Both the position numbers and the translations under genes were made by a program. Below, in pieces: positions 3,386 to 54,854 of a DNA stretch of 64,000 nt. The DNA lies in assembly GCA_046539325.1 (NCBI GenBank), contig JBKHHD010000002.1, forward strand, positions 53,425-117,424, given 5' to 3'. Under the pieces are notes generated by a model. That model made no database searches, was not told the DNA's origin, and was given only the letters and a program-made list of their open reading frames with translations. Position 1 is the stretch's first letter; every line of letters begins with the position of its first letter. This DNA comes from Candidatus Aenigmatarchaeota archaeon (GTDB taxonomy: Archaea; Aenigmatarchaeota; Aenigmatarchaeia; PWEA01).

Positions 3386-3594
3386 GGGCCCGTGGTCTAA
3401 TGGCAATGCAGAACCGTGTTCCGATTTACGGTTTGCACCGGAATGACGTCGCCCTTGCAAGGCGAAGACTGTGGGTTCAAAAGAGACCACTTTGGAATGA
3501 AAACACTTTACTGAAAACGGAGTTTTCGTAAAGATCCAAGCTTCGTTTGAAATATTTTCCAAAGGGTTTTCTGGAATTCCCACCGGGTCCACCA
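3386..3594 (+). tRNA. tRNA-Ala(TGC) in ITS with D-loop (~3406-3443) and T-loop (3482-3577) introns, CCA encoded
   Basis: GGGCCCG/CGGGTCC acceptor, TCGCC-CT-TGC-AA-GGCGA; BHB at T-loop restores TTCAAAT. Confidence 0.9.
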
Positions 3595-3786
3595 GTACTG
3601 TTCGCGATTTTAGAAAGTTTTAAATAACTTCACTGTTACAGGACTTTTGAACCTGATACAGGCCTGATAAGATGACTGGAAAGTAAGACTTGAAGGATTA
3701 GTTGCTTACTTCAGTCTGTTCTTTTTCGTTTTGTTGTATAGTTTTAATGTGCAGCTCTCTACCGCAGGTAGAGGGTGAAGAGTGAT

Positions 3787-3866
3787 AAGGGACGATGAAT
3801 TGAGTTTTGTGAACACCCTTTGATCCCGAGAGGGAGATGATAGTAAGACGATCACAAGAGTCCCTT
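3787..3866 (+). ncRNA. Box C/D guide RNA in the 16S-23S ITS (predicted targets 23S U2552 and U1920)
   Basis: Terminal stem AAGGGAC/GTCCCTT, two K-turn motifs, 10- and 11-nt perfect complements to 23S obeying the D+5 rule. Confidence 0.85.
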
Positions 3867-3967: not shown

Positions 3968-6922
<2,955 letters not shown>

Positions 6923-7067: not shown

Positions 7068-7523
7068 TGTGGTGAGCTGGAGAGGGACCACCGGGATAGT
7101 TTGGATGAGGTTGTTTTCCTTCACAGGAAACACCCTTGTATTCCCGGAGGAAGCTCCTCCCACCCGTTGTGCTGTAAAAGTGCAACGAGGCCCAGGCTCG
7201 CAAGAGTCCGTCCTGAGAGGGAACGGAACAGGGAACAGAAACGATACCCCCGCGCTGGAGCGTTGAAAGCTGAGAAGGCACGGAGGGATGGAACGTACCC
7301 TGATCTGGGTGGTGCAAGACCAAATAGGCTCCGGGAAATGGATGTGCCTTGCACGTCGGTCTCTTGGAGCGGGTAGGTCGCTATTTGGAGTCCGTGAGGG
7401 CTTCAAACTTGGAAGCATCTGCTTCCGAGAAGATGAATGTCCCGAAGACCTGACATGGACGCGGACTTCGTCCACGTCGTTTTTGGGTCCGAACAGAAGG
7501 AGGGCTACTCCCAGCACACCACA
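7068..7523 (+). ncRNA. rnpB: RNase P RNA
   Basis: P4 halves GAGGAAGCTCCTCCCAC and AACAGAAGGAGGGCTAC, AGAAAC and GGTGCAAG motifs, terminal pairing TGTGGTG/CACCACA, TATA at ~7039. Confidence 0.9.
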
Positions 7524-34871: not shown

Positions 34872-35048
34872 ATGTCTTCCCCCGGAAACGTGGAGGAAAT
34901 GATGGAAGTACTCGCCTGTCCAAAGTGCAAAGGCGACGTAAAGCTTAATAAAAAGGAAAACAAGATAGTTTGCCACGACTGCCGGCTCAGGTTTTCCGTC
35001 GAAGACGGCATACCAAATATGCTGTTGGATGAAGCGGAAAGCTTTTGA
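34872..35048 (+). CDS. Trm112-family methyltransferase activator
   Basis: LACPKCKG..C..C..F.VEDGIPNML. Confidence 0.88.
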   Translation: MSSPGNVEEMMEVLACPKCKGDVKLNKKENKIVCHDCRLRFSVEDGIPNMLLDEAESF

Positions 35049-35054
35049 ACGGAG

Positions 35055-35255
35055 GCCGGGGTAGCGAAGCCAGGTCCAACGCGCCGGATTTGAGAACGGA
35101 TCTATTGACGAGAGGATGATATAACTGTTTCAAGAGATCCGGTGGGCCGCGTAAGGTCCTGTATCTGTGGAAGTCCACGTGGGTTCAAAAGAGAACGCTT
35201 TGGAAGTGAAAACACCTTTTCCAAAGGGTTTCTGAAAGTCCCACCCCCGGCGCCA
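35055..35255 (+). tRNA. tRNA-Ser(TGA) with three introns (35095-35136, 35154-35171, 35190-35238), CCA encoded
   Basis: CCGGA-TT-TGA-G..A-TCCGG; BHB motifs at anticodon, variable arm and T-loop. Confidence 0.9.
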
Positions 35256-35273
35256 CATAAAAAAGGTGAAAAA

Positions 35274-35744
35274 ATGGTTGAAGAAAGGAAAAACATATTA
35301 AGAATTTTCAGGACGGACATTCCCGGAGACTGGAAAATAGGTGAAGGTCTGAGACAGCTAAAGGGTGTTAGCTTTTCAACAAGCAAGCCCATACTGAAAA
35401 AAGCAGATGTAGACCCTACCAAGGCCGCAGGGGATATAACTGATGAGGAAAAAGAATCTATAAAGGAAGTTATAAAGTCAGGACAGATCCCCTCGTACCT
35501 ACTCAACAGAAGGAAGGATCCAGAAATAGGAGAAGATAGAATGCTTACCTCAAACGACCTGGAAATTCAGGAGAGACAGGATATAGAGGATATGAAGAAG
35601 CTCGGCAGCTACAGAGGAATGCGTCACAGACATGGACTTCCGGTGAGAGGTCAGAAGACACAGTCCAGCTTCAGAGGAGACAGCTCTGTCGGTGTAGCTA
35701 CAGCTGAAATAAAGGCAGAAAAATCAGGGGAAGAAGGTGAATAA
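35274..35744 (+). CDS. rps13: Ribosomal protein uS13
   Basis: YRGMRH..GLPVRGQKT. Confidence 0.97.
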   Translation: MVEERKNILRIFRTDIPGDWKIGEGLRQLKGVSFSTSKPILKKADVDPTKAAGDITDEEKESIKEVIKSGQIPSYLLNRRKDPEIGEDRMLTSNDLEIQERQDIEDMKKLGSYRGMRHRHGLPVRGQKTQSSFRGDSSVGVATAEIKAEKSGEEGE

Positions 35745-36613: not shown

Positions 36614-37396
36614 ATGGAATTTGAAAAGATTGAGGAGGACGACAAGAAGCTTAAATTTGTTACAAAGGATACAAATCCAGCTATGATGAACGCTTTGAGA
36701 AGGATCTCGATGAACTACATTCCTGTGCTTGCAATAGAGGACGTCGGAGTAAAGGAAAACAGTTCGCCGATATTCGACGAAGTTATAGCCCAGAGGCTGG
36801 GGCAGGTACCGCTTGTCTTTGATCCAGACAAGTTTACGTTGAAGGGAGAATGCGACTGTGAAGACGGCTGTCCTAACTGTGAGGTTGACTTCACGTTTGA
36901 AGGCGAAGGACTTGGAAGGCTTTACTCGAAGGACCTCGTCTGTGAGACGGGCGATATCGAGGTACTATATGACGAGATACCTATAACAGAGATGGATGAA
37001 AATCAGAGGGTCGAGCTTGAAGCAACCGCAGTATTATCGAAGGGAAAAGATCACTCGAAACATCAGGCAGCTATTTCCTCGTACCAGTACTACCCTATAA
37101 TCGATATAGACAACGATGAGCTCACGAAAGAAGAAAAGGGTCGCTGCGTCGAGGTGTGCCCAAAGGATGTTTTTGAGCTCGATGGCGGCGACCTGAAGGT
37201 TTCAGAGGAAAAGAAATGTACTGTATGCAAAGAATGCGTCAACGAAGTGGATACAGGCGTAGTAGTTACAGGCGACGAGGAGAAGTTCATATTCACCATA
37301 GAGTCTACCTGTTCACTAAGCCCCCAAGAAATAATTGAGAAGGCCGCTGACATACTTGAGAAGAAGTCCGAGAAGGTAGTCGAAAAGTTAAGCTAG
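36614..37396 (+). CDS. rpoD: RNA polymerase subunit D (Rpo3) with ferredoxin-like insert
   Basis: NALRR, CDCEDGCPNC, CPK..CTVCKEC. Confidence 0.96.
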   Translation: MEFEKIEEDDKKLKFVTKDTNPAMMNALRRISMNYIPVLAIEDVGVKENSSPIFDEVIAQRLGQVPLVFDPDKFTLKGECDCEDGCPNCEVDFTFEGEGLGRLYSKDLVCETGDIEVLYDEIPITEMDENQRVELEATAVLSKGKDHSKHQAAISSYQYYPIIDIDNDELTKEEKGRCVEVCPKDVFELDGGDLKVSEEKKCTVCKECVNEVDTGVVVTGDEEKFIFTIESTCSLSPQEIIEKAADILEKKSEKVVEKLS

Positions 37397-37538
37397 CGGG
37401 GGTAACCAAGCGGTCAAGGTAAAGATACGACTAAAGGTGCAGGACTTAAGCTCTCAGCTTAAGTATTGAGGCCCATTGGGCGATGATAAGAAATCCTGTG
37501 GCTTAGTGCCTTCGTCGGTTCGAATCCGGCCCCCCGCA
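37396..37538 (+). tRNA. tRNA-Leu(TAA) with D-loop (37418-37434) and 37/38 (37451-37492) introns
   Basis: GCGGGGG/CCCCCGC acceptor, CAGGA-CT-TAA-G..A-TCCTG, BHB motifs. Confidence 0.9.
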
Positions 37539-40899: not shown

Positions 40900-41019
40900 G
40901 GGTCCGTAGCTCAGCCTGGCAGAGCACTGGGCTTTTAACTTAATATGTTAAAAGAGCTAGACGTTATGTCGATGATGAAAGAAACCCAGGAGTCGCGGGT
41001 TCAAATCCCGTCGGACCCA
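40900..41019 (+). tRNA. tRNA-Lys(TTT) with 37/38 intron (40938-40983)
   Basis: CTGGG-CT-TTT-A..A-CCCAG. Confidence 0.92.
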
Positions 41020-54637: not shown

Positions 54638-54854
54638 GCCGGTGTGGCCGAGTCAGGCTCAAGGCGGTGGATTCGAGTCTGGATGTGTTGAGCAAACGCG
54701 ATGAAAGAGAAACATCCACTGGGCGTTAAGGACAAGTACGTAGGCCTTTGCCTACGTCGGTCGACTAGGCCCGCGCAGGTTCAAAAGAAAACCCTTTCGA
54801 AAAGTGTTTTCATTCCCAAAGAAAGGTTTTCGGAAAATCCTGCCGCCGGCGCCA
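54638..54854 (+). tRNA. tRNA-Ser(CGA) with three introns (54678-54713, ~54730-54767, 54786-54837), CCA encoded
   Basis: GCCGGTG/CGCCGGC acceptor, GTGGA-TT-CGA-G..A-TCCAC. Confidence 0.88.

Follow-up and report, generated by a model that had tools for sequence, protein, structure and literature searches.

The question raised by the locus described here is whether the intron of an archaeal tRNA gene may direct the modification of the very tRNA in which it is embedded. The window, i.e., the whole stretch of 64,000 nt that was analysed, derives from Candidatus Aenigmatarchaeota archaeon (GenBank assembly GCA_046539325.1, contig JBKHHD010000002.1, positions 53,425 to 117,424 of the forward strand) and contains a gene for tRNA-Ser(UGA), whose anticodon loop is interrupted by an intron complementary to the anticodon arm of its own precursor. 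According to the data reported below, this Ser(UGA) intron is probably a half-mer box C/D guide, with a single kink-turn (K-turn), for the 2'-O-methylation of U39 (Um39), and it would act on the unspliced precursor. The genome under study (715 kb, 10 contigs) is referred to as G000, and the other G numbers represent the relatives with which it was compared. Two DNA sequencing runs labeled as microbial mat metagenome contain the sequence in full and may be its source; no RNA run was among those listed. In the following, positions are those of the window, unless a contig of G000 (C1, C2, or C4) is named. The gene and the parts of the intron on which the argument rests are the following:

35055-35255, + strand: gene for tRNA-Ser(UGA), in which CCA is encoded and three inserts are present (hand parse; orthologues in eight other genomes of the family).
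35084-35088 with 35138-35142, + strand: anticodon stem, CCGGA (nt 27-31) with UCCGG (hand parse).
35091-35093, + strand: anticodon UGA (hand parse).
35095-35136, + strand: anticodon-loop intron, 42 nt, between nt 37 and 38 (hand parse).
35097-35103, + strand: guide CGGAUCU, positions +8 to +2, with A35100 as +5 (sequence and orthologue pairing).
35104, + strand: A, position +1, unpaired with the target (never Watson-Crick in 30 introns out of 30).
35105-35108, + strand: D-like strand of the K-turn, UUGA (UUGA in 8/9 orthologues, AUGA in G008).
35109-35114, + strand: canonical stem of the K-turn, the single pair C35109-G35114, closing the GNRA tetraloop GAGA (35110-35113).
35115-35122, + strand: C-like strand, formed by the 3-nt bulge GAU (35115-35117) and GAUAU (35118-35122).
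35123-35136, + strand: variable 3' part of the intron, supplying CAAG (35131-35134) to the bulge-helix-bulge and the bases A35135 and G35136 to the target.
35135-35141, + strand: target AGAUCCG, i.e., the last two intron bases and nt 38-42, with U39 as T35138 (hand parse and RNAfold).

Since the intron lies between nt 37 and 38, T35138 corresponds to nt 39, even if the intron boundary is shiftable by one base because of the identity of A35095 and A35137. Counting upstream from UUGA, the fifth base is A35100, which pairs with this U39. As read from the sequence, the K-turn comprises tandem sheared G-A pairs (A35108-G35118 and G35107-A35119), while on its non-canonical side U35106 lies opposite U35120, followed by the Watson-Crick pairs U35105-A35121 and A35104-U35122; with a stem of a single pair under the GNRA loop, the structure predicted for Ser(UGA) is in effect a kink-loop (K-loop). 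The initial annotation had described the succession CGGATCT, A, TTGA, C-GAGA-G, GAT, and GATAT as a K-turn capped by a GNRA loop, and each base was found at the coordinates given above. It had also placed the AGATCCG string both in the precursor and in the spliced tRNA, which is correct, since exon 1 ends with AG (35093-35094), the same letters as the intron end. A different reading of the C-like strand, with a box C' of sequence AGGAUGA and a 4-nt spacer, was dropped: orthologues and paralogues conserve AUGA rather than GAUGA, which in turn sets the register as a (G/A)AU bulge followed by GA.

The minimum free energy (MFE) structure computed by RNAfold for the region 35084-35143 (-15.7 kcal/mol) pairs 35097-35103 with 35135-35141, so that the 5' strand of the anticodon stem (35084-35088) is displaced by the pairing of the guide with the 3' strand, whereas the centroid structure retains the anticodon stem. 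The two folds thus compete with each other. The intron harbors no complement to the 5' side of the anticodon loop, and its only guide is the one for nt 39.

The Ser gene was matched in 11 out of 41 related genomes, including all eight other members of the family. In each of the nine family genomes, which belong to two genera, the guide, the D strand, the capped stem, the RAU bulge, the GA, and the pairing of +5 with U39 are all maintained, so that the K-turn parse, the duplex with AGATCCG, and the position of A35100 opposite U39, all three proposed in the initial annotation, hold throughout the family. The guide pairs over 7 bp in G000, 8 bp in G006 and G005, and 9 bp in the other six genomes. 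Among the orthologues the 3' half of the intron varies, both in how long it is and in its sequence, while the 5' half is kept. Within the latter, the tetraloop appears as CGAGAG in three genomes, CGAAAG in three, and CGUGAG in one, all of them GNRA, with longer hairpins at the same place in G005 and G008; the bulge is GAU in 8/9 orthologues and AAU in the remaining one, and D position 1 pairs with C position 6 as U-A in 8/9. Moreover, G001 has a CGGAUUU guide together with an intron ending in GAA, that is, a compensatory change from C-G to U-A, whose target side is a base present only in the intron.

The MAFFT alignment of the nine introns misplaced G008 and G005, and pairs were counted instead by means of custom scripts, in which D boxes were located either by a regular expression containing the guide sequence or by the best fit to the register pairing +5 with nt 39. 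This way of locating the D boxes leans the counts toward the model, and the comparison with shifted registers serves as a check. The guide positions +2 to +8 of 30 introns from four tRNA types amount to 210 cells, and 204 of these form Watson-Crick pairs in the register placing +5 on nt 39; registers shifted by 1 to 4 give 23-51% of paired cells in the same introns. Four types of Watson-Crick pair occur across the 30 introns at position +3. Furthermore, 52 out of 54 modules from six tRNA types can be parsed in the same way, with a bulge reading GAU (41 cases), AAU (8), UGU (2), or UAU (1).

The same module is indeed present in other tRNA introns of these genomes, three of which belong to the following genes:

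54638-54854, intron 54678-54713: tRNA-Ser(CGA), with variable-loop and T-loop inserts present.
C4 60220-60372, complement strand: tRNA-Thr(UGU) of G000 (hand parse; labeled tRNA-Arg(gcg) by ARAGORN).
37396-37538, intron 37451-37492: tRNA-Leu(UAA), with guide CUUAAGU, A, UUGA, hairpin, GAU, and GAUAA.

The anticodon stem of tRNA-Ser(CGA) differs from that of tRNA-Ser(UGA), being formed by GUGGA with UCCAC, and the intron has its own matching guide, UGGAUGU with ACAUCCA, in the order CUGGAUGU, G, UUGA, GCAAACGC, GAU, and GA; its +5 (A54683) faces U39 (T54715), a register found in 7/7 genomes. Similarly, the guide of tRNA-Thr(UGU), GCUGAUUU, places +5 on U39 in 8/8 genomes, and its K-turn covaries: a UCGA D strand, in G001 and G008, accompanies a change of the C strand from GAAAG to GAGAG, with U-A replaced by C-G between D position 2 and C position 5. 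The D-loop insert of the same Thr gene is absent from six out of the seven other genomes harboring the gene and present in G008. In the tRNA-Tyr intron the elements follow each other in the usual way, with a stem first, then the C strand, the guide, and the D strand, and finally the stem again; +5 is on C39 in 6/6 genomes, and D position 1 covaries with C position 6 (U-A in two of the genomes, A-U in the other four). For Ser(CGA), Thr, and Tyr, guide base +2 or +3 finds its partner solely among intron bases.

A second group of modules reaches the wobble position. In the introns of tRNA-Trp and tRNA-Met, +5 falls on C34, and in tRNA-Leu(UAA) the base opposite +5 (A37461) is U34, at the wobble position (T37447). 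The Leu(UAA) module is present in all eight full-length orthologues of the family, the ninth (G005) ending at the contig end past the D box, and a Leu wobble guide with a single K-turn was recognized by eye in 11 out of 12 less closely related genomes, from other families, two of these guides lying in Leu(CAA), with +5 on C34. The module was not seen, by eye, in the introns of Lys(CUU), Gly(UCC), Cys, Pro(GGG), Gln, and Ser(GGA). The Lys(UUU) intron (40900-41019) is ambiguous, with a perfect AUGAUGA box and a complement to the anticodon loop, no clean D strand, and a best register that places +5 on U33 and +6 on U34. As for the tRNA-Trp gene (C1 116084-116240 of G000, complement strand, compared with seven orthologues), the guide with the K-turn is the first of two in the intron; the second changes in concert with the 3' anticodon-stem strand and pairs with nt 39 through the fifth base upstream of a conserved hairpin, lacking a following NUGA box and having AGGUGA after the hairpin.

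The module is not confined to tRNA introns, and a further copy was detected between the rRNA genes, giving the +5 rule a check independent of the tRNAs:

3809-3842: element of the 16S-23S spacer, with GUGAACACCC, U, UUGA, UCCC-GAGA-GGGA, GAU, and GAUA.

Its guide has a 10-nt complement in the 23S rRNA (6579-6588), with +5 (A3815) facing U6582. In a gapless alignment with rrl, this base corresponds to the U of E. coli GGCUGUUCGCC (position 2553 of the 2905-nt annotation), which we take to be U2552 of the A loop, the target of RrmJ/FtsJ. The element was picked, for its strong hairpin, from a screen for rRNA complementarity of at least 9 nt among 1823 loose K-turn candidates, which gave 67 rows, about 60 being expected by chance according to simple arithmetic rather than a shuffle. 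The element is retained in G006 and G001, where its stem covaries and GCAA replaces GAGA, and was thus found in 3/9 genomes of the family, where rRNA operons are often unassembled. None of the nine family genomes has a match to the FtsJ/RrmJ family (PF01728) above the Pfam cut-off, while PF01728 is present in 14/14 control genomes and 16 out of 41 relatives pass, mostly marginally. The absence of FtsJ matches fits a replacement by RNA-guided methylation at U2552 and at the wobble sites. Additional K-turn-like strings occur immediately upstream of the spacer element (3776-3800). The RNase P RNA gene (7072-7519) lies directly downstream of the 23S rRNA gene and has long insertions; its Rfam score is 85.7 bits, compared to a cut-off of 84.

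The proteins that such a guide would require are encoded by the same genome, all without stops: fibrillarin (PF01269, 273.3 bits, C2:22464-23108), Nop5 (PF01798, 202.4 bits, C2:23119-23733), and L7Ae (PF01248, 106.8 bits, C1:74075-74344). We can thus depict the following scenario. L7Ae would bind the K-turn and recruit Nop5-fibrillarin; the 7-9 nt lying just 5' of UUGA would displace the 5' strand of the anticodon stem and pair with the last two intron bases and nt 38-42(44), either in cis or on another precursor in trans; U39 would be set opposite the fifth guide base and 2'-O-methylated by fibrillarin; and the RNA would afterwards refold into the bulge-helix-bulge form and be spliced. The Um39 so produced might add rigidity to A31-U39, the weak closing pair of the anticodon stem. 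What the sequences show is the anatomy of the intron, its conservation and covariation, the +5 register, and the presence of the protein genes; the binding of the proteins, the catalysis, the action in cis, and the succession of the steps are inferred. The fold required by splicing is given by:

35089-35092 with 35131-35134, + strand: central helix of the bulge-helix-bulge, with 3-nt bulges at 35093-35095 and 35135-35137 (hand parse).

The central helix covaries among orthologues, being UUUG/CAAG in G000 and CUUG/CGAG in G004, G007, and G002. This fold and the guide duplex are mutually exclusive, which implies that methylation should precede splicing. Moreover, with a single K-turn, the particle would be a half-mer occurring in nature, in which one Nop5 dimer may carry two RNAs.

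The substrate deserves a closer evaluation. The same guide might have another timing, with the excised intron ribonucleoprotein (RNP), either linear or circular, acting in trans on precursors or on spliced tRNA-Ser; we consider this unlikely, even if the AGAUCCG target survives splicing in G000, the intron RNP of pre-tRNATrp is described as acting in trans in reviews (PMC11408192, PMC7994747), and circular tRNA introns do occur in archaea, according to the portion available of the second one (PMC7994747). Action on the spliced tRNA fits poorly with the G001 guide, whose +3 has no Watson-Crick partner other than the final base of the intron, and with the +2 or +3 of the Ser(CGA), Thr, and Tyr guides, which would mismatch after splicing; a trans action on precursors is compatible with all these pairs. 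As the compensatory change in G001 and the pairs in Ser(CGA), Thr, and Tyr reach bases present only in the intron, the substrate is most likely the unspliced precursor, although the target string is also found in the spliced tRNA of G000.

A second alternative, which we regard as improbable, assigns to the K-turn the role of a landing pad for L7Ae unrelated to methylation, for example in folding or quality control, in opening the anticodon arm, or in delaying splicing. L7Ae does bind K-turn RNAs that are not guides, such as RNase P RNA (PMC4245976, as far as the consulted part of it goes), the guide duplex competes with the splicing fold, and one K-turn alone is atypical of guides; nevertheless, a landing pad would leave unexplained both the fixed spacing, with +5 on nt 39 or 34 in seven tRNA types and on the U2552 equivalent in the 23S rRNA, and the never-paired +1, as in box C/D guides. 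Lastly, a chance resemblance, or a decaying and non-functional relic of a former full C/D intron, is barely credible: the motif alone is frequent by chance, the guide is short, and a Ser(CGA) guide has decayed in G001, but the 5' half is kept in 9/9 genomes of two genera while the 3' half drifts, the GNRA loop is retained through three sequences, and compensatory changes are present.

Several observations weigh against a half-mer guide for Um39 in the Ser(UGA) intron. As for the element itself, the 42-nt intron has just one K-turn, the guide duplex of G000 has only seven contiguous pairs, the box sequences depart from RUGAUGA/CUGA, the canonical stem is a single pair, and no Rfam match was obtained for 35030-35280, the best E-values being 1.3-9.3, all below the gathering score. 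As for its distribution, G012 lacks the Ser(UGA) guide, and a scan of 301 genomes of the class with an anticodon-arm pattern found no such guide beyond the family; 10 of the 301 genomes matched the pattern, seven from the family and three others (G141, G206, and G249) with unrelated introns, so that the guide seems to be confined to the family. In G001 the guide of Ser(CGA) has decayed to the point of pairing over a run of 4 bp, suggesting that the constraint on the guides is not absolute. At the genome level, the K-turn motif is not enriched, either bare (37 matches vs. a mean of 29.45 in 20 shuffles) or with a local 7-nt complement added (68 matches vs. 51.7 in shuffles); the case therefore rests on conservation and covariation. 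Finally, Hardin and Batey (2006) reported that a single-site RNP is active and loses site specificity, both motifs being needed (PMC1635284, in the sections available).

A comparison of orthologues by eye revealed no conserved second K-turn in the variable-loop and T-loop inserts. The two-motif C/D layout, searched for with a regular expression, was matched once in the genome, and between zero and two times in every one of 10 shuffles; this result hints that guides with one K-turn may be the norm in this genome. Other trans targets of the Ser guide are not apparent: AGATCCGG has 23 matches in the genome vs. 21.8 expected, none of which in 16S or 23S rRNA.

Among known systems, the nearest is the guide in the intron of pre-tRNATrp from Euryarchaeota (Haloferax volcanii; Pyrococcus sR50), which directs the formation of Cm34 and Um39 (PMC6313347, PMC7994747, PMC11408192); nt 34 and 39 are also the two positions addressed by the modules in the tRNA introns studied here. 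As described in the accessible portions of these papers, that intron, like the one in tRNA-Ser(UGA), lies between nt 37 and 38, and its guide is complementary to the anticodon arm of its own precursor and targets nt 39 through the fifth base upstream of a D-type box. The pre-tRNATrp guide works with L7Ae, Nop5, and fibrillarin on the precursor; in the genome studied here the three genes are encoded, and the use of the precursor is inferred. The host tRNA is not the same in the two systems. A single guide with a single K-turn is found in the Ser(UGA) intron, in contrast to the C, D', C', and D boxes with two guides (Cm34 and Um39) of pre-tRNATrp; furthermore, the Ser boxes are UUGA and GAUGAUAU, the stem is closed by a tetraloop, and the order is guide, D, cap, and C. 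The wobble targets of Pyrococcus small RNAs (sRNAs) are Leu(CAA), Leu(UAA), Met, and Trp, according to the part of PMC7994747 that was consulted, and the +5 of the modules on the wobble base of Trp, Met, and Leu(UAA) coincides with these sites.

A second comparison concerns Nanoarchaeum equitans, another archaeon with a small genome, whose elongator tRNAMet has a 66-nt intron predicted to be a C/D sRNA and abundant as RNA (PMC3491384). The available text of the same paper reports one box C (with a U-to-G change), one box D, and a stable hairpin. Its counterpart here is the module of the tRNA-Met intron, with +5 on C34. No target register is proposed for the N. equitans element in that text, and both its host tRNA and its target differ from those of the Ser(UGA) module, which would target nt 39.

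With canonical archaeal box C/D sRNAs, the module shares the tandem G-A pairs, the 3-nt bulge ending with U, the guide immediately 5' of the D strand, the unpaired +1, the +5 target, and the K-loop geometry of D', short loop, and C'; unlike them, it lacks a second (C'/D') motif and is part of its own substrate rather than a free-standing gene. The presence of one K-turn and one guide is instead reminiscent of the synthetic half-mer and single-site C/D RNPs, and a half-mer RNA with its target has been crystallised with Pyrococcus proteins (PMC6239191, for the part consulted). Whereas those half-mers are laboratory constructs, the Ser half-mer appears to be natural and conserved. The full-text literature yielded no description of a guide lying in an intron of Ser, Thr, Tyr, or Leu tRNAs, supplements and most subscription papers lying outside the search; the only intron-borne guides in the literature so retrieved were that of tRNATrp (experimental) and that of Nanoarchaeum tRNAMet (a prediction).

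The half-mer guide proposed for the Ser(UGA) intron would thus extend the intron-guide principle to Ser, with Thr, Tyr, Leu, Met, and Trp as further hosts in these genomes, in the form of a far smaller element having one K-turn. It would represent a natural test case of whether a half-mer C/D RNP can be site-specific, and would provide a functional reason for the retention of introns in reduced archaeal genomes. In addition, the succession of guide, UUGA, capped stem, RAU bulge, and GA may serve as a simple rule to predict 2'-O-methylated nucleotides (Nm) in uncultured archaea, namely Nm34, Nm39, and rRNA Nm sites. A broader idea, which we advance tentatively and to which we assign somewhat less than an even chance, is that this lineage has largely replaced free-standing, two-site C/D sRNAs by single-K-turn guides embedded in their substrates, acting as in-cis half-mer RNPs, and located in seven or more tRNA introns (for nt 34 or 39) and in the rRNA spacer (for the U2552 equivalent). 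If this were true, guides would be one reason for the many tRNA introns of reduced genomes, and site-specific methylation would not depend on the bipartite RNA architecture that specificity is held to require.

The remaining features of the tRNA-Ser(UGA) gene are as follows:

35055-35061 (G35055-G35061) with 35245-35251 (C35245-C35251), + strand: acceptor stem, followed by the discriminator G35252 and CCA (35253-35255) (hand parse).
Roughly 35148-35169, + strand: variable-loop insert of about 22 nt (approximate boundaries).
35190-35238, + strand: T-loop insert of 49 nt, between nt 59 and 60 (approximate boundaries).

This gene was missed by ARAGORN, both with default settings (two tRNAs called in the window) and in its intron search (30 calls in the whole G000 genome), and by Rfam at the gathering score (four tRNAs called in the window). 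After the in silico removal of the inserts, ARAGORN returned a tRNA-Ser(tga) in 1841 out of 2800 combinations of boundaries, a result that supports the gene model and leaves the boundaries unfixed. As tRNA-Ser(UGA) shows, multi-intron tRNAs in such genomes escape standard tRNA finders.

The T-loop insert of tRNA-Ser(UGA) had been considered as the site of a second K-turn, for the presence of GUGA and CUGA in G000; these were lacking, by eye, in the orthologues, and the candidate was rejected. Several inserts per tRNA gene, in the variable loop and in the T loop (nt 59/60), are found at 35148-35169, 35190-35238, and about 3440-3595, and further ones at 54720-54770 and 54786-54837. The T-loop inserts of different tRNAs are related to each other, with BLAST matches among those of Ser(UGA), Ser(CGA), the tRNA of the rRNA spacer, and others, and they share the recurring form GAACCUUUUU...AAAAACGUUCRCGAAAA...GGUUCGGAAA. 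This similarity suggests that the T-loop inserts may represent a mobile or duplicating intron family.

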